Of a stretch of DNA of 40,793 nucleotides, positions 2,275 through 39,119 are shown piece after piece. The DNA is taken from NCBI GenBank assembly GCA_964498175.1, contig CAZCHA010000003.1, positions 1 to 40,793 on the forward strand. Reading direction: 5' to 3'. Below the pieces are notes generated by a model. It was given only the letters and a program-made list of their open reading frames with translations, was not told the origin of the DNA and ran no database searches. Position numbers and translations under genes: made by a program. The stretch's first letter is position 1; each line of letters starts with the position of its first letter. This DNA comes from an uncultured bacterium (GTDB lineage: Bacteria > Fidelibacterota > Marinisomatia > Marinisomatales > UBA1611).

Positions 2275-4611
2275 TTAATTTTTAGAAAGTGAGATTCCTT
2301 CCATGGACTCTTCCAGTTCTCTTGCAACTGTCAGGAAGGTTTCCACATCCATTTCCTTTAAATAAACTGCACCATGAACGGCACGAAGGTGAGGATTCTC
2401 ATTCTGATACCAATAATCTCTACCTAACATTAATTGCAGATCTTGGTGCTGCTCGACCCAGATTTTTTGAGAGAGATCACAAAAAGGGCCTTCCAATTCA
2501 TAACTGGGAAAAGATGCATCTCTTTGGCTCAAATAACAATTCATAAAAGTAGATCGCAGGATCGCCATCGAATTCAATGTTACTGGGACAATCACGTCCG
2601 CTTCAGCAAGATCAAACCGGTACCAGACATTTCGATATCCCCAAATCCGTAAATGAGATAAATCTGATTCATCATTCCAGATTCGAATCGCATCAGCAAT
2701 AGCTTGTAACACTTTATAATGTGTGTCGGGCCCACTCCCTTCCGGATCAAGTGCTAAAGAAATAACCGTAGGCTTTATTTCCTTTAGTTGTTTCAGAATA
2801 GGCAACACATCTCGATTCCGTTCGGGAGATTTTGTAAAAATATCACCCGTATAAAATCCTAATCGAAGATGATATATATCCTGAACACGTACACCATAAT
2901 TGGACCAAACCAGTTCTTCCTCATATTCCCGAATTATCCCTTTCAATTTTTGGATTTCACCAGAGTTTTTTTCTCCATCATAATAATGCATTAATTCAGA
3001 AATTATAGAATTGATACGGTCTTCTAAAGCATTTTTATTCTTGATAGGATAAATCTTAATCAATCCACGAATAACTCGATGCGCCACAGCTCGATTTTGT
3101 TCACTTTTGTCAACCTTCGCCAAATTATCTAAATAATGGAAAACGTCTTTATCCCATTTTAATTTATAACCTTCGGAGAAAAAATCAGGGTAATCTGTCA
3201 TTTGTATTTTTCCCTGCAACAAGAATTCTAAAGTAAATGATAATATATTAGATATAAATCCATTTGTTACAGATGTAAACCCAGAAGTCATATTGACAAA
3301 ATGATGGGAATTACTGGGCTCTCTAATCAAATGAATAATGTGCGGCATCATCCCTAACATTATATCATCATGATGGGGTCCTGTATGGTAATATACCTGG
3401 TTCGATTCATTTTTTATTCCTCGCTGAACTTTTGCATGTATTTTATCTATAATCTCCGTTACAGTACCTTCACCCAGCCTAGGAATAGTTTTACAAATGG
3501 AATCATTTTTAAGATCATCATGAGATAATTTTTTCCCGAAGATATTTTTTCTTTTCGCCAGTCGTAAAAGTGCTCTTTGTTTCTTTACACCATCCCAATT
3601 TGAGTTTTCCCAATAATGTTTTTCAGTATCCTGGAGCAATTTTGCTGCACCATTAGTCAAGTAAAATCGGCTATATTCACATCGCTGTAAAACTGTAGCT
3701 GGGAATTTTACATCAGGCAAATTTTCCAGTGAAGTTTTCACAATGGATGCTTTCGCTTCCCCCGCAGCCGTAATGATCGCAACTGTATCATCTTTGAAAG
3801 TAATAGATGCTAATCCAATAGTAATCACAAGACGGTTCTTGCTGACTTCCATTCCGCCTAAGTCTGTTGCTGCTGCGGCTTGTGTTTCAAAGTTTGTTTC
3901 CATAAGCCTTGTGGTAGAATTATGATCTGATCCGCGAACATTAAACGCAATATGACCATCGGGACCTAAACCACCCAGAAAAAAACCTATTCCACCCATA
4001 TTTTGTATTTTTTCCTCGTATTCGGTACACCACTGATCAATCAAATAAATAGAACTTTGCTGGACTTTTTCCAATTCAGATTTTGGATCCCTGTGGCGTA
4101 GAGTCAGATCAATTATGTTATTTGGAAAAATATCTTTCCATTGTTTTGCATCGATTAATGGTATTTCTGCACAATTGATCAACAATGCATTCTCCCTTGA
4201 TATTCCAAAACCAGATAAGTAAAAATTATTCACATAATTAAAGAAACTGTTATGTTGTGAAGGATCTATTGGATAAAACTCATCAATTTGCACAAATTTT
4301 AGCTGGGAAAGATCTGGCTTTTGGTCTACACCCAACCCATTTTCTTTTCTTAGATAAATAAGATCTTTATCATCCCAATTATTGAGAAAATGATGAGTCC
4401 ATTTGATAAAATATTCGGGAGTTTTACCTGTTGGTAGACTAATGACACCTTCCGGATTCTTAGACACCCATTCTAGAAATCGTAATGATGTTAAAAGCCC
4501 AAGATCAGGAAAATTATCAACCAAGATATAGGGAATTTTTGTTGTCTGGTTTTGAATGTCTTGTCGTTGAAAAAATCGTTTTTCAACCTCAGACCAGTTC
4601 GGATAACTCAT
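2275..4611 (-). CDS. Fusion protein: N-terminal glucosamine-6-phosphate deaminase/isomerase (NagB-like) plus C-terminal LmbE/PIG-L-like putative deacetylase
   Basis: NagB-like blocks are ISLPTGKTP, VQIDEFYPI and GGLGPDGHIAFNVRGS in the first ~300 aa. An LmbE/PIG-L-like HPDD-type block (YYHTGPHHDDIMLG) sits near aa 410. There is no signal peptide. Long NagB-like proteins of this kind are annotated in Bacteroides but, as far as I recall, uncharacterised. Confidence 0.7.
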   Translation of the reverse strand: MSYPNWSEVEKRFFQRQDIQNQTTKIPYILVDNFPDLGLLTSLRFLEWVSKNPEGVISLPTGKTPEYFIKWTHHFLNNWDDKDLIYLRKENGLGVDQKPDLSQLKFVQIDEFYPIDPSQHNSFFNYVNNFYLSGFGISRENALLINCAEIPLIDAKQWKDIFPNNIIDLTLRHRDPKSELEKVQQSSIYLIDQWCTEYEEKIQNMGGIGFFLGGLGPDGHIAFNVRGSDHNSTTRLMETNFETQAAAATDLGGMEVSKNRLVITIGLASITFKDDTVAIITAAGEAKASIVKTSLENLPDVKFPATVLQRCEYSRFYLTNGAAKLLQDTEKHYWENSNWDGVKKQRALLRLAKRKNIFGKKLSHDDLKNDSICKTIPRLGEGTVTEIIDKIHAKVQRGIKNESNQVYYHTGPHHDDIMLGMMPHIIHLIREPSNSHHFVNMTSGFTSVTNGFISNILSFTLEFLLQGKIQMTDYPDFFSEGYKLKWDKDVFHYLDNLAKVDKSEQNRAVAHRVIRGLIKIYPIKNKNALEDRINSIISELMHYYDGEKNSGEIQKLKGIIREYEEELVWSNYGVRVQDIYHLRLGFYTGDIFTKSPERNRDVLPILKQLKEIKPTVISLALDPEGSGPDTHYKVLQAIADAIRIWNDESDLSHLRIWGYRNVWYRFDLAEADVIVPVTLNSMAILRSTFMNCYLSQRDASFPSYELEGPFCDLSQKIWVEQHQDLQLMLGRDYWYQNENPHLRAVHGAVYLKEMDVETFLTVARELEESMEGISLSKN

Positions 4612-4612
4612 A

Positions 4613-5953
4613 TTATTTTAAATAAACTATTTTTTTAACTGTTTTTGATCTTTCACCCAAAAGTTCTGCGATATAAAGGCTGGATCCAGTATTATTATTT
4701 GCATTTTTTACATTCCAATAATAAACATGGTTCCCTCTATCTAGTTTTTCATGGCTTAAGGTAACCACATTTTCGCCAGTAACTGAATAAATATTCAACT
4801 GAATAATCTCTGCATGGTCCAAATCAAATTCAAATCTACAGGATGGATTAAATGGATTGGGATATGCTTTTAGTGATAGTTTATTTGGAACTATGGCTGG
4901 CTCATTATGGTCAACATCTAAAAAATTTTCATCAATGGATTGAATTAATGCTTGTCCATTGGTTGTTTCATCGTATCCCAACGCCCAAATCATGACACCG
5001 CCTAGCTCTAGTTCGATCGCATATTCACACTTATAGCCTATGGATTCCTGATTATCATAAGTTATAATTCTCGAGTAATCATCTTTCCTTAAATAAGGAC
5101 AAAGTGCAATATTATCCCAGTTATATTCCCAACCATTATCGATTAGATTAGGAATTTCATTGTATCGCTTATCAGCAACATCGCCTGTAAAAGATTCGTT
5201 AATATCAGATGCATAATAACGTTTTCCCCAAAAAGGTAAACCCAAATTTATTTGTCCTTCTGGAATGCCTCTTGTATTAATCAAATAATTCATAGCAGTT
5301 TCACAGGAGCCATCAGGGTCTCCCGGCGGCGATTGATACAAAGGAGAATTATGTCCCGCATCATTGGTCCAACTGCCATGCATATCGTAGGTCATTGCAT
5401 TAAAAAAGTCCACATAAAATTGTAAAAAAGAAAAATCATACCATTGACCAGCCCAATTTGAAATAGGTACTGCCATAGTGATAAGTAATTCTGGATCATG
5501 AGCATTAAAGACCGAATCCATTTCAGCTATAAGAAAGTTAAGGTTTTGACGGTCCTCATTTGACCATGGATGTTCCCAATCCATATCTATACCATCGTAA
5601 CCATAGGTATCACAAATATCAATCAAATTATCAATAAACGTCAATCTCAATTGGGCATCGGCAGCAACTGTTGCAAATCCAACATCGTTTCCCCAACCTC
5701 CTAAGGATAATAAAAATTTCCCACCGCCCGAATGAATAGTTTCGCTATGACTTGTGTTCAACATATTAGAATAAGATAAAACATTTCCATTTACATCGGG
5801 CCAGGCAAATGCATGATTTACATGCGTCACGACTGATAAATCAATGTTAGAAACGGGAAATCCATTTTGTACCCACTGAGGATAATAACCAACAACTCTT
5901 TGGCCAAATAAAGAGCTCAAAATAAAGCAGAGGATTAAAGTTATTTTATTCAT
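4613..5953 (-). CDS. Secreted GH18 glycoside hydrolase (chitinase / endo-beta-N-acetylglucosaminidase type) with T9SS C-terminal sorting domain
   Basis: Signal peptide. Blocks VVGYYPQWV and LLSLGGWG. Catalytic YGYDGIDMDWEHP (the GH18 DxxDxDxE motif). Blocks MTYDMHGSW and GGVMIWALGYD. C-terminal AYPNPFNPSCRFEFDL...SLYIAEL...KKIVYLK. Confidence 0.85.
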   Translation of the reverse strand: MNKITLILCFILSSLFGQRVVGYYPQWVQNGFPVSNIDLSVVTHVNHAFAWPDVNGNVLSYSNMLNTSHSETIHSGGGKFLLSLGGWGNDVGFATVAADAQLRLTFIDNLIDICDTYGYDGIDMDWEHPWSNEDRQNLNFLIAEMDSVFNAHDPELLITMAVPISNWAGQWYDFSFLQFYVDFFNAMTYDMHGSWTNDAGHNSPLYQSPPGDPDGSCETAMNYLINTRGIPEGQINLGLPFWGKRYYASDINESFTGDVADKRYNEIPNLIDNGWEYNWDNIALCPYLRKDDYSRIITYDNQESIGYKCEYAIELELGGVMIWALGYDETTNGQALIQSIDENFLDVDHNEPAIVPNKLSLKAYPNPFNPSCRFEFDLDHAEIIQLNIYSVTGENVVTLSHEKLDRGNHVYYWNVKNANNNTGSSLYIAELLGERSKTVKKIVYLK

Positions 5954-6004: not shown

Positions 6005-6841
6005 TTAATTAGAGTTAATTTTATAAAACATAACACCATCAAATCTTGGTTTTCCATCATTAAATAAATACGACAAAAAATCTACATTTACAGTTTTTTT
6101 ATGTTCTGATGATGCATGAATCAAATTTGTTTGATCAATCAAATACCCCTCATGGGCAATAACAATGCCCATTTTAAAATATCGTTTTTTTACAAAAGCT
6201 ACACCACTAACAGCGGGCAAATTTAGCAACATGTTATCCGTAATATTGACAGTTGGAATGAATTGAATTGTTTCATTCGATGACCAATTTAGATTTAAAA
6301 ATTCCGATCCATCCTGTTTTTTATTGAGTTCAATTTCAACTTTTTCCAAATCATTTTCATGTGCAATAGATGGTGTAATATCTACCGTTCGATCATGGTG
6401 CAAAAGCCTATCCGATGTATAATGCCATCGCGAAATGTAAGTAGGTTTTTTTTCTCCATTTTCATCCATTTTATAATGAATATCTACCATAACATCTCGA
6501 GCATTTTGCCAAGAGAAACTTTCTGCAAATGCGAGAGTGCTTAAAACATGAACTGTACAATCGGATGAATCAGCACGGAGTAATGGATCAGGATCTATCC
6601 CCGATTCTTCTCCCAAACAAAATAACCCGTAAGGTGTGCCGACGCGCCAAAGATTTAATGCTTTCACACGATCATGGAAATTGGGGAACCGTTCATGAAA
6701 TTGGGGTAAATAAAACTCAAATTCTGTTTCTGTAAGCAACCATGGGTCGGGAATAATATCTACCCATTTGAAGGGATCCGCCTGTATTGCACAACTTGTG
6801 ATTAAAAAACTAATCACAAAAATGTATTTTTTACCTACCAT
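6005..6841 (-). CDS. Lipoprotein, DUF1460-like (NlpC/P60-fold MurNAc-L-Ala amidase family acting on anhydro-muropeptides)
   Basis: Signal peptide with lipobox (FLITSCA). A candidate catalytic Cys lies in ADSSDCTVHVLSTLAFAES. A His-containing block GIVIAHEGYLIDQTNLIHASS lies near the C-terminus. This pattern matches what I remember of DUF1460, but the assignment is by eye only. Confidence 0.45.
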   Translation of the reverse strand: MVGKKYIFVISFLITSCAIQADPFKWVDIIPDPWLLTETEFEFYLPQFHERFPNFHDRVKALNLWRVGTPYGLFCLGEESGIDPDPLLRADSSDCTVHVLSTLAFAESFSWQNARDVMVDIHYKMDENGEKKPTYISRWHYTSDRLLHHDRTVDITPSIAHENDLEKVEIELNKKQDGSEFLNLNWSSNETIQFIPTVNITDNMLLNLPAVSGVAFVKKRYFKMGIVIAHEGYLIDQTNLIHASSEHKKTVNVDFLSYLFNDGKPRFDGVMFYKINSN

Positions 6842-6991: not shown

Positions 6992-8248
6992 ATGGCGAAA
7001 CATCCACTTATAGATTTATTAAGAAAAAAACAGTTATTTGATTTTCTTGCAGATCAATACGGTACACCACTTTATATCTATTCTAAAGAACGTTTAATTC
7101 ACAATATTGATTTACTAGACAAGACATTAAATGATAATTTTGATTCATATCATATTTGCTACACCATTAAAGCAAATAGCAATCCACATTTAATTAAAAT
7201 CCTCAAAAATGCTGTTCCGTCAATTGGTGCAGACTGTGCTAGCCCTGGTGAAATATATGTGGCAAAAAAAAGTGGAATAAAAAGCAATCATTGTATTTAT
7301 ACAGGGAATTATGAATCACCTGATGACCTAAAATTTGCACTTGAAAATAGAGTCCATATCAATTTAGATGATATTACATCATTTAATCGCATGAAGAAAA
7401 TTGGTCTCCCAGATGATATAGCGTTTCGACTAAATCCTGGTTTTGGAAAAGGAGCTTTTTCTCAAATCGTGACTGGAGGTAAAAATTCTAAATTTGGTGT
7501 TCCACACTATGATATTGTGGAAGCATACCGGCTCGCTAAGGAATCTGGCATTACAAAATTTGGGATTCAATGTATGACTGGGTCAGGAGTATTGGATCTT
7601 GATTATTACCCAAAACTCATCAATGAAATTTTAAAAGCTGTTGGATTGCTTAAAAAAGAATTAGATATCCATATGGATTATATTAGCCTGGGAGGTGGAT
7701 ATGGGATTCCTTACCATGATGATGAAACACCTTTAGATTTCAATAAAGTTTTTCGAAATGTGGCAAATAATTTCCATGCTTACTTCGATGAACGAAATGA
7801 AAAAAAACCATCTCTTTGGATTGAACCCGGTAAATCAGTGGTTGGGGATACGGGAATTTTGCTCACCCAAGTCACTGGGATAAAAGAAAGTTATAAATCA
7901 TATATTGGTGTGGATGCAGGCATGGAAACACTCATGCGACCTGCACTTTATGGGGCTTACCACCGGATATATAAAGTGGGAGACCCGTATGCACCTAAAA
8001 ACCATATAGTGGATGTCACAGGGCGTATTTGTGAAAATACGGATCGCATTGCAGTAGATCGCGAATTTCCTGATGTGGAAGAAGGTGATTTAATTGCAGT
8101 CATGGATACAGGTGCGTATTCCTATACAATGTCCCATCAATTTTGTACACGACCTCGTGCTGCCGAAATTCTTCTGAATGGAAAAAAATCAACCTTGATA
8201 CGAAAACGGGAAACAATTGAAGATATTTTTTCAGGTTGTGATATTTAG
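6992..8248 (+). CDS. lysA: Diaminopimelate decarboxylase-like PLP-dependent (fold type III) decarboxylase
   Basis: YGTPLYIY, the PLP-Lys block YTIKANSNP, TGGKNSKFG, SLGGGYGIPY, EPGKSVVG, GRICENTD and DTGAYSYTMS match the Orn/DAP/Arg decarboxylase family. The overall pattern is closest to LysA. No signal peptide. Confidence 0.7.
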   Translation: MAKHPLIDLLRKKQLFDFLADQYGTPLYIYSKERLIHNIDLLDKTLNDNFDSYHICYTIKANSNPHLIKILKNAVPSIGADCASPGEIYVAKKSGIKSNHCIYTGNYESPDDLKFALENRVHINLDDITSFNRMKKIGLPDDIAFRLNPGFGKGAFSQIVTGGKNSKFGVPHYDIVEAYRLAKESGITKFGIQCMTGSGVLDLDYYPKLINEILKAVGLLKKELDIHMDYISLGGGYGIPYHDDETPLDFNKVFRNVANNFHAYFDERNEKKPSLWIEPGKSVVGDTGILLTQVTGIKESYKSYIGVDAGMETLMRPALYGAYHRIYKVGDPYAPKNHIVDVTGRICENTDRIAVDREFPDVEEGDLIAVMDTGAYSYTMSHQFCTRPRAAEILLNGKKSTLIRKRETIEDIFSGCDI

Positions 8249-13204: not shown

Positions 13205-14230
13205 TTAAAAATTAAACCCTATTGATAGTCGCTCTACAGAACCTAATGGCCCAAAATCTGAAATTGAATAATCCAATTTCAAGATGGTAGCAGTTCTCCA
13301 AATACGATAATCTAATCCTACACCAAATGTTGGGCCTTCAATTGACTCTTCTTTAAATAAAGAAGGAATCCCTGTACGTACGGAAACAAGATTATTAAAA
13401 ACTGCTTCCATGCCCATATTCACATACTCAGAATTATCATTAGGGTGTAATGCATCTATGCCATAGGTTAATCTTAAATTATTTGAATTAATGAATTCGC
13501 CAGAAATACCAACGCGGAAAAACAATGGTATTGGAAAAGATTCTGTTTCAAGATTTGCATTGATAAACTCAACATTCCCTTGATTCACTGGATCAGGATC
13601 CACACTGATTTTTTGATCTCTACCCTCTAATTTCATTTTTCCGCCATAATTACTTATAGATGCACCAAGCCTTATTCCTTTAAATGGTGTTGTAAATAAC
13701 GCACCAATATCCCCTGCAAAAGTACTCGCCGTTGCGTGCCAAATATTCTGCTGGATATATTTGATGGAGCCACCTAAGGAAAATTTATCCGTCAAGGAAC
13801 GGGCATAGCTTAGATTAACTGCTAAATCATTAGTAGAAAATTTTTCACCGGTTCCTTCTGGTTTTACAACAGTTCTTACAAGATCTTCCGGTGAAGAAAG
13901 GCTGATGATACCAAATCCTAATACACCTGCCCCAGGAAGAGAAATTCCTGTAAAAATATGTTGATGTTTCATAGTAGCGAGCCAATCATGGTTTCCAAAC
14001 TGAATACCAATACCTTGGATGCTTGCTAATCCAGCTGGATTCCAAAACATACTACTCAAATTGGATTTCAGGCCAACACCAGCATTGCCCATTGCGGTAC
14101 TGCGTGCATCCACACCTATTTTTAGAAACTGAGCCACTGTCGTACCCGATTTGGTAATAATTTGATTGTTTCCAAACTGTCCCAATAGGACAGTTGATAT
14201 GAACGTCATTTGAAATAATATTTTTATCAT
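13205..14230 (-). CDS. PorV/PorQ-family outer-membrane beta-barrel (T9SS shuttle-like)
   Basis: Signal peptide. The N-terminal GTTVAQFLKIGVDARSTAMGNAGVGL...FWNPAGLA is the characteristic PorV/PorQ opening. The rest shows an alternating beta-strand pattern and ends in ...LSIGFNF. It overlaps the upstream gene by 4 nt. Confidence 0.65.
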   Translation of the reverse strand: MIKILFQMTFISTVLLGQFGNNQIITKSGTTVAQFLKIGVDARSTAMGNAGVGLKSNLSSMFWNPAGLASIQGIGIQFGNHDWLATMKHQHIFTGISLPGAGVLGFGIISLSSPEDLVRTVVKPEGTGEKFSTNDLAVNLSYARSLTDKFSLGGSIKYIQQNIWHATASTFAGDIGALFTTPFKGIRLGASISNYGGKMKLEGRDQKISVDPDPVNQGNVEFINANLETESFPIPLFFRVGISGEFINSNNLRLTYGIDALHPNDNSEYVNMGMEAVFNNLVSVRTGIPSLFKEESIEGPTFGVGLDYRIWRTATILKLDYSISDFGPLGSVERLSIGFNF

Positions 14231-24842: not shown

Positions 24843-24886
24843 ATGAATAGGCATCAAGGTCGCTAAGAATCACGAAGATAATATAT

Positions 24887-30896: not shown

Positions 30897-33407
30897 CTAT
30901 TTTAATAGAATCATTCTGCCTGAATTTTTAATATCATCAGACATGAGCGAATAAATATAAACGCCTGATGAAACTTTTTCGCCATAAATATTTGTTCCAT
31001 CCCAGATTAAATAATATTCACCCGGTTCATAAATAGAGTTTGTCAGTTCTTTAATTTTATTTCCGAGAATATCAAATACTGTTAAAATTATGCGTCGAGA
31101 ATCACTGGTTTGGAATTTAATTTTTGTTGTGGGATTAAATGGGTTTGGGTAATTCCCAGTTAAGGTAATTCCAACTGGAAGCTCTTCTGTATTTATTGAT
31201 AATTCGAATTCGTCAACGATCCGGAAATCATCAATATATATTTTCCCAAATTGTGCTTGTCCCGCAGAATAGGTTAATTGAAAACTATCAAATCTCATTG
31301 TTCCATCTAATTGACCATCTCCAATCCATTCACCTGTTCCATCAAGATCCAAATCCCAATAAACTAATTTCCATCCAATCCAATCGATGATATACCAAGG
31401 GCTCACTTCGTGGTATTCTGCTCCAGTACTGGGAAGGTTGTCATCAACGGCAAACCTGAATTTGTTACCAGAGCCATCTCCAAAAACATAAGCCTGCATG
31501 GTTTTGCTATCGTTGAAGGTAATATTTCTCGGAGGGCCACCACTTAAATAAACTCGGATTAGCCAATCAGAAGAATTGAAATTCCAGCCATAATTAATTT
31601 CCATTGATTGAGTGCTGCCATACAACCCGTTAATTGTTTCCATATTCGGTAACATGGAGGTACTATCGGTAATAATTCCCGTCGTACTCCCAGAACTTTG
31701 CGGTCCCCACCAATTATCTTGAAAATTTTGTTCCATTGCATCAATTAGTGTGATATTCAAATCAATGTTTCCGGTATTAAAAGAATAAGAATGGTTGAAT
31801 GGAATCGAATTATTGAAGTTATCATTAAGTCCAGAATAGATTCTGGTAACATACACTTCATCAGGATGTAAACTATTAAATGGGAAAAAACACATAGAAC
31901 TTCGCCCTAAAACATTGTAGTGCACCCATTCACCTTCCACACCTGAATGATCTTGAAAACGTTCCAGAAAAAAGAATGATTCTACTAAAGAGTCTGGCCC
32001 AATTACTTCATCAAACTGTATATTGACAATGGGATTCAACTCGACATTTTGGGATACATTGGGCGGAATAACAGCAATAATTTCAGGCGGTGTCATATCT
32101 GCCGGGCCTGTGCGGAAAGTCAAAATAAAATCACCTCCTGGAACTCCATCTTTGTCACCATCTAAATAATGACCATAAACATCTCGTGCTTCTTCCAAAA
32201 TTGTTAACAAATAATCTGTTTCAAATTCTAATCCATCAGGTACAATTGTTAAGGTTCGAAAATTGTTTCCCCAAGTTTCGGTAAACTCAGTTGGCGGATT
32301 TAATGAAAGAGATTCATCCACTGTTTCCTGATCCATCGGACGAGAGAATTGGATTTCAATAATATCCCAAGCAGGGAAAAGAGAGTCACCCTGAATCGGA
32401 ATAGTTTCAACTATTACAGGTGCTTGGCTGGATAATAAAAACACATCGTGAAAGGTAATAAAAGAATCAGCTACTGTTACCATTGCAGTATCAGGGTAAT
32501 AATTATCTGCAGTTACTATGACTTCATAACTGGAATCTATGAGTCCATCAAACCAATAAAAACCATTTCTTAGTTCATTTACATCGGATGAATAATTATG
32601 AAAAAGTGATTCGAATGTATCCGTTGTATATGAAAGCTCTCCAAGAGAAATTGTTGCACCATTAATGGGATATTCTGATTCCAAATCATAAACCTGTCCT
32701 GCTATTTGCCCCACAAATGGTCTGCCAATTTCATGATATTTTAAAATGGACCAATAAAACAAATAAGCCAGCATTCTTTTGTATTCATCATTCATAACTA
32801 ATTGATTCTGTGCAGGATTTGTATGATGCCCTTCTTCACTGAGTTCTGACGGCATATTCGTATTCCGATTTACATATAGATAAGGGCCACCCGAATTTGC
32901 GCAATAATCGCTCCATGTGTAAAAACTGCAATCCCCCCAGGATCCTGTAGTTGCAATTCTCATTCCATCTGTTAAAATATCAATCATGAATGAGCTCATT
33001 TCCTCTCCACCAACAGGCGGATCGGGATTCCCATTATTTAATTCTCCCCATAACATTAAAGTTTTATTTGTATTTGAATTGGAACTAGCATCGCTATGGA
33101 TAGAATGATACCAGGATGCACTTACAGAATTAGCATAATTCGTTCGTTGATACAAGGAAACGGTCTGGTTGTCATTTGTTCTGGAAATGTAGACAGAATC
33201 TATATCAGTTTGATTCTCTAATATATCTTTTAAGTGCAGACCTACTCTCAGGACTTCCTCTGCTTCTGAATAGCCATTGATCCCCATATTTTCAGTTCGG
33301 CTGTGGCCAGGATCAATAAAAATATCCCAACCATTCAATCCTGTAACTTGTGACAGACACGTACTAGCCATGAAAACTATGATCAGTCTAATTAAAAATT
33401 GAATCAT
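30897..33407 (-). CDS. Secreted multidomain N-acetylmuramoyl-L-alanine amidase (Amidase_3 + CarboxypepD_reg-like + 2 Ig-like + uncharacterised domain + T9SS CTD)
   Basis: Signal peptide. Amidase_3 blocks are IFIDPGHS, YSEAEEVLRVGLHL, YISRTND..VSLYQRTNYAN and WYHSIHSDA. A CarboxypepD_reg-like segment reads GQIAGQVYDLESEYPINGATISL. Two SbsA/Big_5-like Ig domains span roughly aa 330-545. A conserved unknown domain spans roughly aa 550-733. The CTD is NYPNPFNPTTKIKF...GVYIYSL...RMILLK. Confidence 0.8.
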   Translation of the reverse strand: MIQFLIRLIIVFMASTCLSQVTGLNGWDIFIDPGHSRTENMGINGYSEAEEVLRVGLHLKDILENQTDIDSVYISRTNDNQTVSLYQRTNYANSVSASWYHSIHSDASSNSNTNKTLMLWGELNNGNPDPPVGGEEMSSFMIDILTDGMRIATTGSWGDCSFYTWSDYCANSGGPYLYVNRNTNMPSELSEEGHHTNPAQNQLVMNDEYKRMLAYLFYWSILKYHEIGRPFVGQIAGQVYDLESEYPINGATISLGELSYTTDTFESLFHNYSSDVNELRNGFYWFDGLIDSSYEVIVTADNYYPDTAMVTVADSFITFHDVFLLSSQAPVIVETIPIQGDSLFPAWDIIEIQFSRPMDQETVDESLSLNPPTEFTETWGNNFRTLTIVPDGLEFETDYLLTILEEARDVYGHYLDGDKDGVPGGDFILTFRTGPADMTPPEIIAVIPPNVSQNVELNPIVNIQFDEVIGPDSLVESFFFLERFQDHSGVEGEWVHYNVLGRSSMCFFPFNSLHPDEVYVTRIYSGLNDNFNNSIPFNHSYSFNTGNIDLNITLIDAMEQNFQDNWWGPQSSGSTTGIITDSTSMLPNMETINGLYGSTQSMEINYGWNFNSSDWLIRVYLSGGPPRNITFNDSKTMQAYVFGDGSGNKFRFAVDDNLPSTGAEYHEVSPWYIIDWIGWKLVYWDLDLDGTGEWIGDGQLDGTMRFDSFQLTYSAGQAQFGKIYIDDFRIVDEFELSINTEELPVGITLTGNYPNPFNPTTKIKFQTSDSRRIILTVFDILGNKIKELTNSIYEPGEYYLIWDGTNIYGEKVSSGVYIYSLMSDDIKNSGRMILLK

Positions 33408-34321
33408 TGAATGGTACCAATAATTAGTTCACCTTGAGGATATATTGTTATTGATATAAATTGGCCATCTGACGAAATAGATGGATTCATTTCAATTTGG
33501 TCATCTGTATTGGTTAATTGAGATATGGAATCAGAATCCTTATCCCATATAAAAATATCACCATCTATTAATTCATATCCATTATCTTTTAATCTCATGA
33601 ATAAAATATAATCTCCAGAAGGTGAAACGGATGGTGCATTCCCTACCCCAATTTCCTGATATTTTTCTGTTAATAGATCAAAAAAATATAGGCTACCACC
33701 ATATAGTTCGAATGAGATTAAATTAGTAGAATACGAAGTTGAAAGATTGAGAATATCCGATGGAAATTGTTTTATAAGCACAGCAGATCTAGGATTGTCT
33801 TTTTTAAATAATTTGTTCCCAATAGCATATACTATGGGGTAATTCCATTCTACATTTTTATTTTCTATCGAATAGGATTTCAATTTATTTTCAAGTAAAT
33901 AATGAAGTGAATTATTGCCAGACCAACCAACAGGTAGTATTTTTTTCATTGTAAAATCAATAATCGTATTCAGAACGACACCATTTTGATCAAGTAAAAT
34001 CAAAGAATTCATTCTTCTTTTTTGATTATATTTAGTTTTGAGAATTAACACGAACTTTCCATTTGGTGACCATTTCGCGCTAAATGCATTTAGATATCCT
34101 GTATTAAATAAAGTAGTTTCTACTGAAAGTGGATCAAAAATAAAACAACTAGACTGGTTATCATTTGATAAAAACAATTCAGTGTGGTTTGGAATCCACT
34201 CTGATCGCAAATTAGGCAGGTTCAATTCCATTTCTTCCCACTCTACAACCATATTAGTTTGGGAAAATAGTGCCACATTAAAAAACAGGTTAATTTTGAA
34301 AAACAAATTCATATTCATCAT
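33404..34321 (-). CDS. Exported TolB-like / PD40 beta-propeller repeat protein
   Basis: Signal peptide. Repeated PD40-like units are AKWSPNGKFVLIL, SVSPSGDYILFMR and MNPSISSDGQFISI. It overlaps the amidase start by 4 nt. Confidence 0.5.
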   Translation of the reverse strand: MMNMNLFFKINLFFNVALFSQTNMVVEWEEMELNLPNLRSEWIPNHTELFLSNDNQSSCFIFDPLSVETTLFNTGYLNAFSAKWSPNGKFVLILKTKYNQKRRMNSLILLDQNGVVLNTIIDFTMKKILPVGWSGNNSLHYLLENKLKSYSIENKNVEWNYPIVYAIGNKLFKKDNPRSAVLIKQFPSDILNLSTSYSTNLISFELYGGSLYFFDLLTEKYQEIGVGNAPSVSPSGDYILFMRLKDNGYELIDGDIFIWDKDSDSISQLTNTDDQIEMNPSISSDGQFISITIYPQGELIIGTIQ

Positions 34322-34414: not shown

Positions 34415-37400
34415 ATGATAAATATAAAAAAGGTGCTTCTCGTCTTTTCATTAACCCTTCCCTTCCTAAAAGCTAATCCATCTGATAGAGAATTTCGGGC
34501 GTCTTGGGTAATAACCTGGGAATATATTGGGTCATCCCAGAGTTCGGATGAAATAATGATCCGGATAGACGAGATAATGGATAATCATGCCGATGCCAAT
34601 ATGACCGCTGTACTTTTTCAGGTCAGGCAAAGCGGCACTGTTTACTACGAATCTTCCTATGAACCGTGGGGATACTATGCAGGGTATGGGAATCCTGGAA
34701 TCGATCCGCTTGAGTATGCCGTAAATGCAGCCCATGAAAGAGGCCTTGAACTGCACGCCTGGTTTAACGTGTTTCAAACATCCAGTATGCATGAAGGAGC
34801 TCCCGCTGAAGTCCACCCAGAATGGATCTGTCGGGACCAGAGTGGAAATCCCATGACATCTCACCGAAGCGTATCACCGGGTCTTGAAGATGTAAGACAG
34901 TATACAGTGAATGTTGCCATGGAAATTGTAAATAATTATGATATTGATGGACTTCATTTAGACTATGTCAGATGGAACGAATATTCCAGCAGCTCACAGA
35001 ATATTTTACCCCCTGGTCAGATTGAAGAGATCAGAATGATGGACGGAATTATTTCTGATGAAATGTTAAACGATCTGGAAAATTCCAGGACAGGAAGGTA
35101 TTTATATGATGTTGATCATCCATACTCATCCGGGATTCCGGATGATTATTCCAGCTGGGAGGATTGGTGGAGAGATGGAGTGACTGCATTTGTTAGTACC
35201 TTGCATGATTCTATTCAAACGGTAAAGCCCTTTGTAAGACTGTCATCCGCCGTATTGGGAAGATATAACTGGGGAGGGTGGCAGGGATATGGTACCGTCT
35301 ACCAGGACGCCGCATTGTGGATGAATGACGGTTATGTAGACCATTTAACACCGATGCACTACCACTGGACTTCACCCAACAGTTTTGTTCAAATGTTAAC
35401 AGGATCTAACCAGAGCTGGGCACCCTATATCCAAGATGGCATCCAGGCTGGAAGACTATTCTCTGCCGGACCTGGTTCTTATGTTTTGGCGGATCAAAAT
35501 TTATGGGATAACCATCCAGAAATCGTCGATGCTGTGCGAAATATTGACTTTGTCGATGGGTTCCAGTTTTTTAGTAATGGCACCTGGGAAGATTATCAAT
35601 ACTGGGAAGAAGCGGGTCACACCTTTTTTAAAGATAAAGCTATTGTCAGGAATATCACATACTACGCAACAAACACAGATCTTCCTCCAGACCCAAATAT
35701 TACCCTAGCTCAGATCAATGATCTTGAATACCAAGTTGATATTGCAACAAATTCGGCAGAGAGTTCCGTATGGACAGTGGTTAGCCTTTCCCCATCAGAC
35801 AGTTCAGATATGTCAAGCTCAATCCATTCCATACACTTTGGTTCAGATGATATATTGGTTCCCTTGACATTTGATGGACTGCAGCCTTATGAAGGTGCTT
35901 ACCATGTACATGTGCAAAATTTTAATCGCTTTTGGATTGAATCTGAAACAAGCGCTCAGGAGACAACAGGAGAAATCCCTTCTTACCCTCCAACCCTTAT
36001 AGATATCAACCTGGATACAGGTGATACTATAGCAGTAAACACTATGATAAGAATAGAATTCTCTAAGGAAATAGATCCATCATCATTCACATCATCATTT
36101 TCATTAAGCCCGGAACCGGACATAGTTGAAATTGATTGGTCCGATTACTGGGAAGATGAAGGAAGAGTGGTTTTAATATCGTTCCCTGATCTGCTGGAGT
36201 TTGATTTGGATTATTCACTAGATATATCTGCTGAGCTGACTGATATTATTGGTATCCATTTTGATGGCAACATGGATGGAGTTGCAGGGGATGGATTTTC
36301 TATTACATTTCATACAGAATCAACAGACCTCACCGGCCCACAGGTAACCGAATTTTATCCACCCACTGAATTTATTTTTGATACAGAAGGTGTGTTCAAT
36401 ATCACCTGGGACGAAATGGTAGACCCTGCTTCCATAAACCAGATGTCTGTTCAGTTTCAGTCTAGTGGACAGTACCTGACAACAGACCATATTGAAAATA
36501 CAATTGATGAAATAACCACAGTTTCTTTAAAGCCGTTTGCACCCCTATTGAATGATGCCAGCTGTACAGTCATTCTTAATGGAATTACAGACACGCTCGG
36601 CAATGCCATAGTCAACGCTCTTGAGTATTCTTATAACACTGTACCCTTCTATTATTCCAGTAAAACGTATATAGACCGGTTTAATTCAGGTGCAGGATGG
36701 TGGCAGCCCGATGGGAGTGGATCTACCACCGGGATCCTTGGCAGTGAAACCCAGTTTGGGTACAACAGTTCAGTGTTTGTTCCAGGGGTCAGTATGAACC
36801 CAAACGGAAGAAAATCCGGATCACTTCGGTATGGCTGGGATCCAGATGCTTCCAGTTCATTTTTAAGGCTTCATAATGCGGGTGACCCATCAGATGTTGC
36901 ATTGGATACATCAAACGTGCTCCAAGTATATGTGTATAGTGATGGCAGTGGAAACCAGTTCAGCATATCACTCTATGAATATTCAAATGGCTCTCTCACG
37001 GGAGATATTATTGAAGTTATGGCATGGGAAGAATTAAACTGGATAGGATGGAAATTGATCGAGTGGGATCTTTCAGATCCGGAACAGGTCGGGAACTGGC
37101 TTAGCAGTGACCAGACCATGGATGGGGATGCATATTTTTTAGATGGGTTTCTAATGAAACCGGGGCAGGATAGTGATATGAGCGGAAGGGTTTATTTTGA
37201 TGATCTGCGAATTGTTACCAAAGCTGAAGGAGATCCACCCATGAACTCTGCGCCAGTCATCACCGCTCTACCAGATACAATTATTGAGAATGGTGATAAT
37301 TTTTATTTTTATGTTGAGTTTTCAGATAATAATGAAAATGATATACACCAGATCACTGCTACCACGGATACATCTTCAGTCACAGCTACTATTTACGGAC

Positions 37401-37843
37401 ACACGTCTGGTTCCGTTGTGAATATCGAGTATGAACCCTTTATAGGTGAAACAAACATTACAGTAACCGTCAATGATTTTGGTCTTGGTGAGCTGGCAGA
37501 TACGGTTCAGTTCCTTTTAACCGTTCAGGGTGATTTATTCCTTTTTGATGAACCCATACCCGATAAATTTTCTCTGGGGAGCGCCTATCCTAACCCATTT
37601 AATCCCGTTGTAACTATTCCCTTTACGATTGAGAAACCAAGAGATGTATCAATCCATATCTTTGATATTTCGGGCAGGAAGATTAATACAATCCTTCAGA
37701 ACCAGTTTCTCTTCCCCGGTCTATACGATAAAAATTGGAATGGGTTCAATGACCAGGGGAGACAAGTATCTACAGGTACATATATTATTCAGATCGCTTC
37801 AGGAACTGAACTGCACCACCAAAAAATAACATTAATAAAATAA
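34415..37843 (+). CDS. Secreted multidomain GHL10-family (YngK / DigH-YddW-like) glycoside hydrolase with Ig-like domains, uncharacterised domain, cadherin-like segment and T9SS CTD
   Basis: Signal peptide. The GHL10 (former DUF187) blocks are FRASWVITWEY, NMTAVLFQVRQSGTVYYESSYEPW, DPLEYAVNAAHERGLELHAWFNVF, IDGLHLDYVRW and TPMHYHW. Two SbsA-like Ig domains span roughly aa 525-745. The shared unknown domain spans roughly aa 750-935. The CTD is AYPNPFNPVVTIPF...GTYIIQI...KITLIK. Confidence 0.75.
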   Translation: MINIKKVLLVFSLTLPFLKANPSDREFRASWVITWEYIGSSQSSDEIMIRIDEIMDNHADANMTAVLFQVRQSGTVYYESSYEPWGYYAGYGNPGIDPLEYAVNAAHERGLELHAWFNVFQTSSMHEGAPAEVHPEWICRDQSGNPMTSHRSVSPGLEDVRQYTVNVAMEIVNNYDIDGLHLDYVRWNEYSSSSQNILPPGQIEEIRMMDGIISDEMLNDLENSRTGRYLYDVDHPYSSGIPDDYSSWEDWWRDGVTAFVSTLHDSIQTVKPFVRLSSAVLGRYNWGGWQGYGTVYQDAALWMNDGYVDHLTPMHYHWTSPNSFVQMLTGSNQSWAPYIQDGIQAGRLFSAGPGSYVLADQNLWDNHPEIVDAVRNIDFVDGFQFFSNGTWEDYQYWEEAGHTFFKDKAIVRNITYYATNTDLPPDPNITLAQINDLEYQVDIATNSAESSVWTVVSLSPSDSSDMSSSIHSIHFGSDDILVPLTFDGLQPYEGAYHVHVQNFNRFWIESETSAQETTGEIPSYPPTLIDINLDTGDTIAVNTMIRIEFSKEIDPSSFTSSFSLSPEPDIVEIDWSDYWEDEGRVVLISFPDLLEFDLDYSLDISAELTDIIGIHFDGNMDGVAGDGFSITFHTESTDLTGPQVTEFYPPTEFIFDTEGVFNITWDEMVDPASINQMSVQFQSSGQYLTTDHIENTIDEITTVSLKPFAPLLNDASCTVILNGITDTLGNAIVNALEYSYNTVPFYYSSKTYIDRFNSGAGWWQPDGSGSTTGILGSETQFGYNSSVFVPGVSMNPNGRKSGSLRYGWDPDASSSFLRLHNAGDPSDVALDTSNVLQVYVYSDGSGNQFSISLYEYSNGSLTGDIIEVMAWEELNWIGWKLIEWDLSDPEQVGNWLSSDQTMDGDAYFLDGFLMKPGQDSDMSGRVYFDDLRIVTKAEGDPPMNSAPVITALPDTIIENGDNFYFYVEFSDNNENDIHQITATTDTSSVTATIYGHTSGSVVNIEYEPFIGETNITVTVNDFGLGELADTVQFLLTVQGDLFLFDEPIPDKFSLGSAYPNPFNPVVTIPFTIEKPRDVSIHIFDISGRKINTILQNQFLFPGLYDKNWNGFNDQGRQVSTGTYIIQIASGTELHHQKITLIK

Positions 37844-37847
37844 GTCT

Positions 37848-39119
37848 ATGAAAAAATACACAATCATCTTTTTATCCGTTTTACTATGGAAATGTACAGC
37901 ACCTGAAAACACCGTTACCATCCTGGACCCTGTCACTGCAGGCCAGGTAAACGAAGTGCGAACCGGGCTGGATGTTTTGTTAGAAGATCATTCTAATTAC
38001 CTGAAAGGAAAAACAATTGGCCTTGTAACAAATCATACAGGTATCTCAAGAAAGGGTGAAAAAAACTATAAACTCTTTGAAAATAATCCTGATATAACCC
38101 TGAAACGGATATTTGCACCAGAGCATGGATTCTATGGTGAAGCAAGCGCGGGAACTAAAGTTGAATATGACAACCAAAAAGACTCCGGGCCGGAAATCGT
38201 CTCCCTGTATGGAAAAACCAGGAAACCAACCGCTGAAATGCTTGAAGGAATTGACCTGGTCATTTACGATATACAGGATGTGGGGGCCCGTTTCTATACC
38301 TACATATCCACTCTTGGAATTGTCATGGAAGCAGCCGGCGAGAATGGTGTAAATGTAATGGTCCTTGACAGACCTAATCCCCTTGGGGGAGAGATCATTG
38401 AAGGGGCTATTCTGGATACGGCATTTAAATCATTTGTCGGATACTATCCCATTCCAACACGATACGCATTAACCGTTGGCGAACTGAGCCAGATGGCTGT
38501 AAAAGAAGGCTGGCTCTCATCTGTACCTCCGGAATTGATCGTAGTAACAATGGATGGCTGGAAACGATCCATGTTTTTTGATGATACAGATTTAACCTGG
38601 ATTCCTCCATCACCAAATATTCCAGATCTGAAGACTGCAATTATCTATCCCGGCATGTGTCTCTATGAAGCCACTAACGTTAGTGAAGGCAAAGGTACAA
38701 ATAAAGCTTTCAAACAAATAGGAGCTCCCTGGATGAATTATGACATTGCCAAGGAAATGAAAATTCAGGGTTTAAAAGGCGTGGACTTTAAATATGCAAA
38801 GTTTAAACCAAAAAACTTACCGGGCCGTGCAGAAAATCCAAAATTTGAAGGTTATTTCTGCGTAGGTCAGAAAATAGTTATAACTGATAAAAATGAATTC
38901 AGGTCTGTGGATACAGTAATCTATAGTTTAATGATTACGATTATGTTTTATATGGATAATTTCAGGTATGATTCAAAAAGAATTGGTTATTTATGGGGAA
39001 ACAATTTAATGAACAGATTTTTAAGGGGGGATTTAAAACCAAAAACCCTGTTTACACTATTAAAACAAGATCAAGAAAAATTTATTATTCAGTCTGCTCC
39101 CTATTATCTATATCAATAA
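37848..39119 (+). CDS. namZ: Second DUF1343 / NamZ-family exo-beta-N-acetylmuramidase, lipoprotein
   Basis: Lipobox-like LLWKCT. It has the same hallmark blocks as 10661..11899: TGLDVLLE..GKTIGLVTNHTGIS, FAPEHGFYG, IYDIQDVGARFYTYISTLG, VLDRPNP, SPNIPD and EATNVSEGKGT. By eye it is roughly 55-60% identical to the first copy. Confidence 0.8.
   Translation: MKKYTIIFLSVLLWKCTAPENTVTILDPVTAGQVNEVRTGLDVLLEDHSNYLKGKTIGLVTNHTGISRKGEKNYKLFENNPDITLKRIFAPEHGFYGEASAGTKVEYDNQKDSGPEIVSLYGKTRKPTAEMLEGIDLVIYDIQDVGARFYTYISTLGIVMEAAGENGVNVMVLDRPNPLGGEIIEGAILDTAFKSFVGYYPIPTRYALTVGELSQMAVKEGWLSSVPPELIVVTMDGWKRSMFFDDTDLTWIPPSPNIPDLKTAIIYPGMCLYEATNVSEGKGTNKAFKQIGAPWMNYDIAKEMKIQGLKGVDFKYAKFKPKNLPGRAENPKFEGYFCVGQKIVITDKNEFRSVDTVIYSLMITIMFYMDNFRYDSKRIGYLWGNNLMNRFLRGDLKPKTLFTLLKQDQEKFIIQSAPYYLYQ

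Follow-up and report, generated by a model that had tools for sequence, protein, structure and literature searches.

We analysed a stretch of 40,793 nt from an uncultured bacterium (hereafter the window; positions 1 to 40,793 of contig CAZCHA010000003.1, assembly GCA_964498175.1), in which a cluster of approximately 37 kb combines enzymes of peptidoglycan (PG, or murein)-acting families with a TonB-dependent transporter, and which we consider here as a candidate system for the use of foreign PG. Listing of open reading frames (ORFs) gave 33 of at least 100 aa in the window, and 24 intact, non-overlapping ones fill positions 2275–39119 nearly without gaps, exactly the number counted in an earlier note made from the sequence alone. 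The packing is dense, with frequent 4-nt start/stop overlaps, and the genes fall into six apparent transcription units (Table 1): AmiA-like, GH18a and NagB-like (unit 1, minus strand); LysA, GH18b and NamZ-a (unit 2, plus); the transporter, a 1126-aa protein, a PorV-like barrel and Amidase_2 (unit 3, minus); the glutamine amidotransferase (GATase)-like protein, PBP4, LdcA, two Gate proteins, the M15 dipeptidase, the APC permease and a class-C-like hydrolase (unit 4, plus); the PD40 protein, Amidase_3, the sodium:solute symporter (SSS) and the Beta-lactamase2-fold protein (unit 5, minus); and GHL10 with NamZ-b (unit 6, plus). Rfam and tRNA scans found no Rfam element and no tRNA in the window.

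Families were assigned by Pfam and NCBIfam profile searches of the window proteins at curated cutoffs. More than half of the 24 genes belong to PG-specific families, namely two NamZ proteins, three folds of N-acetylmuramic acid (MurNAc)-L-Ala amidase, a GHL10 enzyme, a SleL/YdhD-like member of glycoside hydrolase family 18 (GH18), PBP4, an LD-carboxypeptidase, a D-Ala-D-Ala dipeptidase and the diaminopimelate (DAP) decarboxylase LysA. The naive binomial probability of finding at least 13 PG genes among 24 is 2e-16 at an assumed background of 2%. The earlier note had placed 13 genes in murein-related families, and essentially all of these families were confirmed, mostly far over the cutoffs; the NamZ, GHL10, amidase, S13, S66 and M15 assignments hold under profile searching. 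MurNAc-L-Ala amidases strip stem peptides from PG; DigH and Cwp19 (GHL10) act on PG glycans, and YaaH/SleL-type GH18 enzymes on spore-cortex PG; LdcA, PBP4 and DdpX trim stem peptides, and LysA decarboxylates meso-DAP.

The host is a member of the Marinimicrobia (SAR406, Marinisomatota, Fidelibacterota) and not of the Bacteroidota. Marinimicrobia rank among the most abundant of the uncultured bacteria in deep and oxygen-poor ocean waters. All name-bearing homologues of the 1126-aa protein came from metagenome-assembled genomes (MAGs) of Candidatus Marinimicrobia or Neomarinimicrobiota (60–74% identity), the two nearest species-representative genomes matched at 94% and 87% identity, the latter being a Marinimicrobia MAG, and near-identical contigs were present in many marine metagenomes, several Joint Genome Institute (JGI) marine samples among them; two metagenome prefixes, SUTE22 and SCRA20, we take, purely as a guess, to stand for the Cariaco Basin. 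Further Marinimicrobia contigs and MAGs carry the same locus at 60–96% protein identity with much of the gene set kept. The host phylum matters because its only isolate, Fidelibacter multiformis IA91, lives on exogenous muropeptides: according to a taxonomic follow-up paper, IA91 is unable to synthesize PG of its own, exogenous muropeptides are both assimilated and catabolized, and this dependence is said to date back to the ancestor of the phylum (PMC11652737). Earlier genomic work on SAR406 reported many Por-tail proteins and predicted PG degradation only via GH23, GH103 and CBM50 (PMC5596340).

Compartments were called from the N-termini with a hydrophobicity and lipobox heuristic. NagB-like, LysA, the GATase and LdcA were without an N-terminal hydrophobic segment, lipoboxes were found in the AmiA-like protein, PBP4, the D-Ala-D-Ala dipeptidase (DdpX) and the class-C-like hydrolase, and a hydrophobic N-terminal segment, taken as a Sec signal, was present in all six proteins with a T9SS-type or T9SS-like C-terminal tail. 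These six are five enzymes plus the 1126-aa protein, whose C-terminal domains (CTDs) are related to one another according to a local CTD hidden Markov model (HMM). The earlier note had described five of the tails, those of the enzymes, as type IX secretion system (T9SS) CTDs. Three of them pass the cutoff of 23 bits for TIGR04183 (GH18b 41.6, GHL10 29.4 and Amidase_2 25.6 bits), whereas the tails of Amidase_3 and GH18a stay just below the library cutoffs, as taken up later. The local HMM was built from five window tails, that of Amidase_3 among them, so its match to the Amidase_3 tail (E 9e-40) is circular; the GH18a tail matched it with an E-value of 1e-16. Together with the sorting-domain models, the heuristic reproduced the sorting of the genes by compartment that had been noted before, and the tail-bearing enzymes are predicted from these signals to be exported by a T9SS.

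Table 1. Features of the cluster, in order of position in the window
Feature	Position	Strand	Profile match or other mark
NagB-like, 778 aa, predicted cytoplasmic	2275..4611	-	GlcN-6-P deaminase-like core, weak LmbE/PIG-L region, no signal peptide
GH18a, classical chitinase type, signal peptide and T9SS-like tail	4613..5953	-	PF00704 221 bits
AmiA-like lipoprotein (DUF1460, NlpC/P60-type MurNAc-L-Ala amidase family)	6005..6841	-	PF07313 73 bits; lipobox ITSC at residue 14
LysA, diaminopimelate decarboxylase, predicted cytoplasmic	6992..8248	+	TIGR01048 equivalog 362.9 bits (cutoff 297.9)
GH18b, YdhD/YaaH/SleL-like GH18, T9SS type-A tail	8217..10664	+	PF00704 114 bits
NamZ copy a (NamZ-a), GH171 exo-beta-N-acetylmuramidase family, signal peptide	10661..11899	+	NamZ_N 245, NamZ_C 142 bits
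Amidase_2/PGRP-type MurNAc-L-Ala amidase, T9SS tail	11910..13184	-	PF01510 61 bits; last gene of the receptor operon
PorV/PorQ-family outer-membrane barrel	13205..14230	-	NF033709 194.8 bits (cutoff 90)
1126-aa secreted all-beta multidomain protein, divergent T9SS-like CTD	14227..17607	-	no Pfam family
TonB-dependent transporter, CarboxypepD_reg, Plug and barrel	17604..20417	-	PF00593 103 bits, PF13715, PF07715
Stand-alone class-I glutamine amidotransferase/C26-like hydrolase, predicted cytoplasmic	20711..21364	+	PF00117 67, PF07722 32 bits
PBP4-type DD-carboxypeptidase/endopeptidase (S13), lipoprotein	21369..22769	+	TIGR00666 244 bits (cutoff 108)
S66 LD-carboxypeptidase, LdcA-like, predicted cytoplasmic	22762..23691	+	PF02016 141, PF17676 102 bits
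Two Gate-domain (SpmA/SpmB-like) inner-membrane proteins	23701..24842	+	PF07670 in both
M15 D-Ala-D-Ala dipeptidase (DdpX/VanX family), lipoprotein signal	24887..25561	+	PF01427 85 bits
APC-family amino-acid permease	25645..27021	+	PF13520 183 bits
Class-C beta-lactamase-fold/D-aminopeptidase-like lipoprotein	27018..28112	+	PF00144 188 bits
Beta-lactamase2-fold exported protein	28222..29487	-	PF13354 55 bits
Sodium:solute symporter (SSS)	29471..30871	-	PF00474 100 bits; TIGR00813 149 bits (below cutoff 184)
Amidase_3 MurNAc-L-Ala amidase, Big_5 Ig-like domains, T9SS-like tail	30897..33407	-	PF01520 71, PF13205 77 bits
PD40/TolB-like beta-propeller, signal peptide	33404..34321	-	PF07676 27 bits; co-transcribed with Amidase_3
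GHL10 (DigH/Cwp19 family) glycosidase, Big_5 domains, T9SS type-A tail	34415..37843	+	PF02638 118 bits (cutoff 27.9)
NamZ copy b (NamZ-b), GH171, signal peptide	37848..39119	+	NamZ_N 271, NamZ_C 118 bits
Third GH18 with sorting tail, frameshifted pseudogene, GH18a paralogue	39125..40209	-	at least three frames

The receptor triad and its neighbours in related phyla

The receptor operon had been described in the earlier note as a TonB-dependent receptor system lacking SusC and SusD. The receptor and the lack of both Sus proteins stood: the transporter is not a SusC/RagA protein, scoring 63.8 bits against a cutoff of 368.25 for TIGR04056 with only its N-terminal 180 residues matching, and none of the 28 window proteins searched had a Pfam match to the SusD family. 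The description of the operon had to be corrected in that it also encodes a barrel of the PorV/PorQ family and the 1126-aa protein without a Pfam family. As the barrel satisfies the family model but scores only 75 bits with the PorV equivalog (cutoff 250) and 67 bits with that of PorQ (cutoff 220), it represents a separate paralogue within the family. The transporter gene overlaps the gene for the 1126-aa protein by 4 nt, this overlaps the PorV-like gene by another 4 nt, and Amidase_2 follows 20 nt further on. Transporter, 1126-aa protein and PorV-like barrel are thus a translationally coupled triad.

Profile searches with the 1126-aa protein found no relative in Pfam, in NCBIfam or among the sequences of the Protein Data Bank (PDB). 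An NCBIfam 'phage tail tube' match (E 9e-6) was far under its cutoff and was rejected as noise. The protein has a large family of its own, with 4185 representatives at 50% identity (E<=1e-3). Its relatives (P0121–P0270) span phyla of the Fibrobacterota–Chlorobiota–Bacteroidota (FCB) group, and the family would merit a definition. AlphaFold (AF2) run on a diverse alignment of 53 sequences gave a model with a mean predicted local distance difference test (pLDDT) of 85.5 and a predicted template-modelling score (pTM) of 0.77; from 22 close homologues only, the model was unusable (pLDDT 49), and a homologue search with a profile of distant family members returned nearly the same close set and added nothing. 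The model shows a signal sequence, long N-terminal helices, and an all-beta multidomain body with Asp-rich loops of the DxDxDG type, Ig/fn3-like domains and a terminal beta-sandwich. The C-terminus, which can be aligned to the tails of the neighbouring enzymes but diverges from them, matched a PorU-tail model with an E-value of 9.5e-4; the PNPFNP motif of the tails is replaced in it.

The PorZ and PorU proteins of the T9SS are anchored at the cell surface by the PorQ and PorV barrels respectively (PMC12365241), and cognate shuttle genes adjoin the genes of their cargo (PMC12618676). The arrangement in the triad resembles PorQ–PorZ, PorV–PorU and the type-B cargo with PorP/SprF, in each of which a sorting-domain cargo is encoded beside its own FadL-like surface-holding barrel. 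Unlike those pairs, the genes here share an operon with a TonB-dependent transporter and nutrient genes rather than with the secretion machine or gliding genes, and the pairing is read from gene order alone. By this analogy the 1126-aa protein may be the transporter's surface partner, capturing fragments while held by the barrel; this role is a guess that we would give even odds at best.

We then examined the triad in other genomes. A scan of species-representative genomes gave at least 573 relatives, and the best 80 of their loci plus three metagenome loci (83 in total) were examined, the ORFs of these loci being clustered and the recurrent ones annotated; singletons were left unannotated, so the PG counts are lower bounds. 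The hosts were MAGs of Marinimicrobia, Rhodothermales, Ignavibacteriota/Melioribacteraceae, Kryptoniota, KSB1 and Calditrichota. The PorV-like gene lay beside the gene for the 1126-aa protein in 81/83 loci and the transporter gene in 75/83, the loci without the latter lying on truncated contigs. At least one strictly PG-specific gene was found within 10 kb in 41 of the 70 informative loci, i.e. those with at least seven genes (naive chance 2e-15). By host these were 10/13 in Marinimicrobia, 18/23 in Rhodothermales, 2/2 in Kryptoniota, 8/20 in Ignavibacteriota, 3/5 in loci labelled Bacteroidota, 0/4 in KSB1-like loci and 0/3 in Calditrichota and others.

The identity of the PG partners differed between lineages. 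Amidase_2 homologues were located no more than 10 kb from the triad in 23–25 other loci from two phyla, mostly directly downstream of the barrel; these were the Marinimicrobia and most Rhodothermales loci, at 40–49% identity. GHL10 was found by the triad in nine loci of Marinimicrobia and Rhodothermales, and the copy in the Rhodothermales locus L028 has a T9SS-type tail. In the Ignavibacterium loci the neighbours are an M23 peptidase bearing a T9SS tail, a SIS/GKRP protein resembling MurQ, a NagB-like protein of 777 aa and an epimerase-like gene of the MR_MLE type, and one Ignavibacteriales locus has NamZ and SSS genes beside the triad. In three Bacteroidota-labelled/Melioribacteraceae loci a Golvesin_C/fn3 protein is followed by PBP4, a DUF1460 amidase and an APC permease, and the Kryptoniota loci hold a GH3-NagZ::beta-lactamase fusion, a BadF/BcrA-family (MurK/NagK-type) kinase and an SSS symporter. 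RmNag3, the Rhodothermus homologue of that fusion, is a characterized beta-N-acetylglucosaminidase (PMC6987092). Other Marinimicrobia loci carry NlpC/P60-SH3, MR_MLE, alanine racemase and LysA genes. Because the PG partners vary by lineage and the triad is constant, shared function is a better explanation than inherited gene order. The triad import core is thus recurrently tied to PG-degrading genes in at least four related phyla.

A protein with FG-GAP/VCBS repeats and a T9SS tail (approximately 550–1100 aa) is encoded directly upstream of the receptor in 46/84 loci (among L008, L009, L012, L013, L021 and L026–L089). In four Marinimicrobia loci (L018–L020 and L024) a triad of 54–55% identity stands beside HAD, NUDIX and unrelated genes, with no PG genes seen. 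There are probably paralogous triads that serve other substrates, or loci that are dispersed. Taking the lineages together, it is possible, although we hold the view only tentatively, that several FCB phyla (Marinimicrobia, Rhodothermales, Ignavibacteriota and Kryptoniota) share an unrecognized architecture for nutrient uptake at the outer membrane, in which a TonB-dependent transporter works with a large T9SS-delivered surface protein held by a PorV/PorQ-family barrel in place of SusD, and in which PG fragments are both the ancestral and the main cargo.

Other enzymes and transporters of the cluster

The two intact GH18 enzymes had both been assigned to murein in the earlier note, and this is supported by sequence for one of them. 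The top PDB matches of GH18b were YdhD (3cz8), YaaH (4s3k) and a cortical-lytic enzyme (4s3j), and its DGVNVDFE motif is kept, placing it, as judged from sequence, in the spore-cortex PG-acting subgroup of GH18. A role for GH18b as an endo-beta-N-acetylglucosaminidase acting on N-glycans was considered and rejected, since the GH85 match is weak and the solved relatives are cortex PG hydrolases. The longest GH18b ORF begins with a TTG codon, and its first 32 nt (8217–8248) coincide with the end of LysA; public gene calls start it 21 nt downstream (808 aa), and the true start is uncertain. GH18a, however, is of the classical chitinase type, with an intact DGIDMDWE motif and chitinases as its top PDB matches. 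The third GH18 gene is broken into pieces, a 169-aa ORF that holds the N-terminal half and fragments of 56 and 47 aa in other frames. An assembly error was ruled out as the cause, because four independent assemblies share the same breaks, and the identical fragmentation shows that the gene is a real pseudogene.

Both NamZ copies exceeded the gathering scores for NamZ_N and NamZ_C, and NamZ-b matched the DUF1343 structure 4k05 with an E-value of 4e-69. They are predicted members of GH171, for which sequence does not distinguish the release of MurNAc from that of N-acetylglucosamine (GlcNAc)–MurNAc; NamZ enzymes require MurNAc ends free of peptide, from which they release MurNAc or disaccharides. 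The GHL10 protein matched Cwp19 of Clostridioides difficile (PDB 5oq2; E 2.3e-23). What had been called a fusion of NagB and LmbE proved to be a divergent protein, with a NagB-like core that scores below threshold (192 bits against 384 for NF002557) and a weak PIG-L match (E 0.002). Its residues 169–297 match NagB in the PDB (E 4e-15), and homologues occur near the triad in seven other loci, adjoining a MurQ-like gene in three Ignavibacterium loci.

Among the amidases, Amidase_2 matched PGRP and T7-lysozyme structures with E-values down to 2e-24 and keeps the His, His and Cys residues (HH.., GHRD and ACPG). DUF1460, the family of the AmiA-like protein, is an NlpC/P60-type amidase family according to its Pfam name; this gene is kept near the triad in six other loci, besides which a second DUF1460 cluster was found. 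Homologues of Amidase_3 lie downstream of the triad in two loci (L021 and L023), in the first of which the pair of PD40 and Amidase_3 is kept immediately after the triad. A LysA gene accompanies the triad at a distance of up to 10 kb in 7–8 other loci, one of them from Melioribacteraceae. The GATase has intact GICYGHQ and HIE motifs, and its position is the same in L007, L011 and L022.

PBP4 has the SxxK, SDN and KTG motifs and the lipobox IIAC. The S66 protein scored below the cutoff of the NCBIfam equivalog model for E. coli LdcA. The M15 dipeptidase contains the SxHxxGxAxD and EWWH motifs and scores 126 bits with NF007557, below the cutoff of 176; its lipobox, also IIAC, predicts a periplasmic protein, and the characterized DdpX and VanX enzymes are cytoplasmic. 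The best NCBIfam match of the class-C-like hydrolase (motifs SITK, YSN and KTG/HTG) was the D-aminopeptidase model NF009622, at 145 bits and below the cutoff. The Beta-lactamase2-fold protein had no sequence match in the PDB. The order PBP4, LdcA, SpmA-like, SpmB-like and D-Ala-D-Ala dipeptidase (21369–25561) resembles that of the dacB-spmA-spmB operon of B. subtilis, and in the Marinimicrobia locus L007 (2379–3542) the SpmB-like Gate protein is fused to an M15 dipeptidase (387 aa). The fusion and the gene order hint that the SpmA/B-like membrane proteins handle PG-derived peptides. In L065 and L075 the triad is followed by PBP4, DUF1460 and then the APC permease. The SSS symporter is a candidate importer of amino sugars (MurNAc/GlcNAc), and SSS genes adjoin NamZ, NagZ or kinase genes beside the triad in L077, L078 and L087.

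To the right of the cluster lies a second, different receptor-centred cluster (40273–40793 on the minus strand, and 12426–21272 in L090–L092). It comprises an NHL-repeat protein with a T9SS tail, the C-terminus of which is the 107-aa ORF at 40273–40596, a 714-aa protein without a Pfam family, a TIG-domain protein and a second TonB-dependent-receptor-like gene (1014 aa, CarboxypepD_reg and a weak Plug).

A putative route for foreign murein and its alternatives

From the families, gene order, sorting signals and cross-phylum linkage described above, activities, locations and substrates can be predicted as follows. Outside the cell, enzymes with Sec signals and T9SS-type CTDs would be displayed or released. 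Foreign sacculi would lose their stem peptides to Amidase_3 and the PGRP-type Amidase_2, and GHL10, GH18b and perhaps GH18a would cut the denuded glycan. At the outer membrane, the barrel would tether the 1126-aa protein through its divergent sorting domain, as PorQ does with PorZ, and the 1126-aa protein would capture fragments for the TonB-dependent transporter, in the role of SusD. In the periplasm, the two NamZ enzymes would release MurNAc or disaccharides, and the DUF1460 amidase, PBP4, the lipoprotein D-Ala-D-Ala dipeptidase and the beta-lactamase-fold hydrolases would trim peptides. The SSS symporter, the APC permease and the SpmA/B-like pair would bring the products across the inner membrane, after which the LD-carboxypeptidase, the GATase/C26-like hydrolase, LysA, which turns meso-DAP into lysine, and the NagB-like protein would feed them into metabolism.

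This layout has much in common with the SusC/SusD polysaccharide utilization loci (PULs) of Bacteroidota, in which one locus likewise encodes secreted or surface glycan cutters, a TonB-dependent outer-membrane importer that starts with a carboxypeptidase-regulatory-like domain, exo-enzymes of the periplasm, transporters of the inner membrane and cytoplasmic catabolism. As in a PUL, carbohydrate-active enzymes for one substrate stand together (two GH18, GHL10 and two NamZ/GH171), here with three amidases, and because the proposed substrate is a glycopeptide, half of the locus consists of peptidases, unlike a Bacteroidota PUL. It further differs in its non-SusC transporter, in having the 1126-aa protein with a T9SS-like tail and the PorV/PorQ-family barrel and no SusD, in lacking a hybrid two-component or extracytoplasmic function (ECF)/anti-sigma regulator, and in its Marinimicrobia host. 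The chitin locus of Flavobacterium johnsoniae is reportedly a PUL with a T9SS-secreted chitinase. In Tannerella forsythia, foreign PG is stripped by an amidase, two periplasmic NamZ enzymes process the denuded glycans and the sodium-symporter-type MurT imports MurNAc. Two NamZ copies and a transporter of the sodium-symporter type are shared with that salvage system (NamZ1/NamZ2, AmpG and MurT-MurK-MurQ). However, the amidase and outer-membrane route of T. forsythia are unidentified and its genes scattered, whereas here one locus brings together candidate secreted amidases, endo-glycosidases and an importer of the outer membrane. Of the MurT/MurK/MurQ operon the window has only the SSS gene, with no BadF-family kinase, SIS/MurQ or AmpG, although MurK- and MurQ-type genes stand beside the triad in Kryptoniota and Ignavibacterium loci. 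With no SusC, SusD, MurK/MurQ or AmpG, the cluster is by membership neither a PUL nor the T. forsythia route.

The isolate IA91 belongs to the same phylum and uses foreign PG fragments for wall, carbon and energy (PMC11652737). It differs in taking up soluble recycling intermediates of growing bacteria, and the taxonomic follow-up paper mentions neither secreted lytic enzymes nor TonB-dependent uptake. In E. coli-type recycling, LdcA-family, DD-peptidase and amidase steps likewise occur and muropeptides are trimmed by the same logic, but the pathway deals with turnover products of the cell's own periplasm and depends neither on secreted enzymes nor on an outer-membrane importer; AmpG, NagZ, AmpD, AnmK and Mpl were not detected in the window or in the 10 kb to its right (Pfam, NCBIfam). 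In the searchable literature we found no description of a TonB-dependent, T9SS-linked PG utilization locus or of the triad; the primary Fidelibacter study (Nat Microbiol 2024) lies outside that scope. Papers on the Rhodothermus GH3 enzyme (PMC6987092) and on Caulobacter recycling, checked for a PG-linked TonB receptor, do not describe this locus. Living on foreign murein is, in view of the Fidelibacter isolate, a known idea, and it is the outer-membrane and extracellular machinery that we did not find described.

Several observations weigh against a murein-utilization system. Two of the five enzyme tails fall just under their cutoffs (Amidase_3, 20.7 bits with TIGR04183; GH18a, 21.2 bits with Pfam Por_Secre_tail), the T9SS literature mostly confines the system to Bacteroidota, and GH18a is chitinase-like by sequence, so that chitin may be a co-substrate. 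For the 1126-aa protein, the C-terminus (residues 1060–1112) matches the local CTD HMM with an E-value of 2e-6 only and is missed by the library models. A Foldseek search of its model against the PDB returned only partial beta-sandwich matches with TM scores of 0.25 or less (N-domains of GH94, GH116 and GH149 enzymes, PorZ and S-layer proteins), and on that basis we name it neither an enzyme nor a lectin. No transcription factor, sensor kinase, ECF sigma or anti-sigma factor was detected in the 37-kb locus with Pfam and NCBIfam; co-regulation of the six transcription units is unexplained by any regulator gene within it. Approximately 40% of the informative triad loci, including all KSB1-like and Calditrichota ones, have no recognized PG gene, so the triad may serve other substrates in some lineages. 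The window has no FG-GAP gene, a 294-nt intergenic region and the divergent GATase gene preceding the receptor instead. Finally, the window has no MurQ, MurNAc/GlcNAc kinase, NagA, NagZ, AmpG or L-Ala-D/L-Glu epimerase, as the earlier note had stated for the MurNAc-6-P etherase (MurQ), the kinases and NagA, and neither have the 10 kb to its right, which means that MurQ, the kinases, NagA and NagZ are encoded elsewhere or that the MurNAc branch is incomplete.

These points have to be set against what other accounts of the cluster would explain. PBP4, LdcA, the DUF1460 amidase and Amidase_3 belong to families known from remodelling or recycling of a cell's own wall, and ordinary division amidases, penicillin-binding proteins and recycling enzymes could have been clustered by chance or co-regulation. 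We consider such housekeeping turnover the most improbable account, given that the T9SS-type tails would carry five lytic enzymes beyond the outer membrane and away from the own sacculus, that Amidase_3 bears Ig-like domains in addition to its sorting tail, that the cluster is centred on a TonB-dependent importer which other phyla pair with different secreted PG hydrolases (M23, GHL10 and Amidase_2), and that the classical recycling core of AmpG, NagZ, AnmK and Mpl is absent from the window. It is also very doubtful that chitin or another GlcNAc-containing glycan, such as those of glycoproteins, is the main substrate and the PG genes are passengers. The chitinase type of GH18a, the adjoining GH18 pseudogene, the weak GH85 match of GH18b and the NagB-like gene, which suits any GlcNAc source, would all fit, but the window has no GH20 or GH3 hexosaminidase, chitin-binding module, NagA or NagK by Pfam and NCBIfam, and two NamZ, three MurNAc-L-Ala amidases, LdcA, PBP4, DdpX and LysA have no role on chitin. 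GH18b, moreover, is nearest to spore-cortex PG hydrolases and the genes that accompany the triad in other phyla are PG-specific. As a side substrate, chitin or chitin-like stretches are suggested by GH18a and its pseudogene paralogue.

Secreted PG hydrolases are common antibacterial effectors, and the M23 protein with a sorting tail in Ignavibacterium belongs to a lytic family of the lysostaphin type, so the amidases and glycosidases might mainly kill or lyse neighbours in antagonism or predation, with uptake secondary. That, too, seems hardly probable, as the murein of intact Gram-negative bacteria, the dominant kind in seawater, is out of reach for free enzymes, and as neither immunity genes nor a delivery system were seen in a locus given mostly to import and catabolism. 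Salvage deserves more weight, although we still regard it as unlikely to be the principal purpose: here, MurNAc, DAP and D-amino acids from foreign murein would go mainly into the bacterium's own wall, rather than murein being a source of carbon, nitrogen and energy. The phylum's sole isolate is a PG auxotroph that assimilates muropeptides from outside, a trait said to be ancestral (PMC11652737), and the pair of NamZ enzymes with an SSS symporter parallels the salvage route of T. forsythia. LysA (DAP to Lys), the D-Ala-D-Ala dipeptidase, the LD-carboxypeptidase and the NagB-like deaminase, on the other hand, would destroy the building blocks, and Mpl, AmgK/MurU and MurK are absent from the window. 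As Fidelibacter, by the same account, also catabolizes muropeptides (PMC11652737), salvage and feeding are not mutually exclusive. Taken together, we think that the locus serves the uptake and use of exogenous PG, as a murein-utilization system analogous to a PUL, with a probability of roughly 0.68; this reading, first put forward in the earlier note, agrees with all computable tests and was strengthened by the linkage of the triad to PG genes.

Nearly all bacteria produce PG, which is considered to make up a sizeable share of the dissolved organic nitrogen in the sea. The gene set makes several questions testable, namely which organisms consume bacterial walls in the ocean, how PG fragments pass the Gram-negative outer membrane, a step also unidentified in Tannerella, and whether T9SS cargo and PorV-like barrels act as accessory subunits of TonB-dependent transporters. 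Since relatives of the core occur in cultivated genera (Ignavibacterium, Melioribacter and Rhodothermales), genetics may be feasible, and the locus gives a context to the family of the 1126-aa protein, for which there is no Pfam model. If the uptake architecture suggested above is real, the triad would supply the outer-membrane gateway that has been missing for the consumption of murein, including the muropeptide dependence of Marinimicrobia, and one route by which the nitrogen of bacterial cell walls is recycled in the dark ocean.

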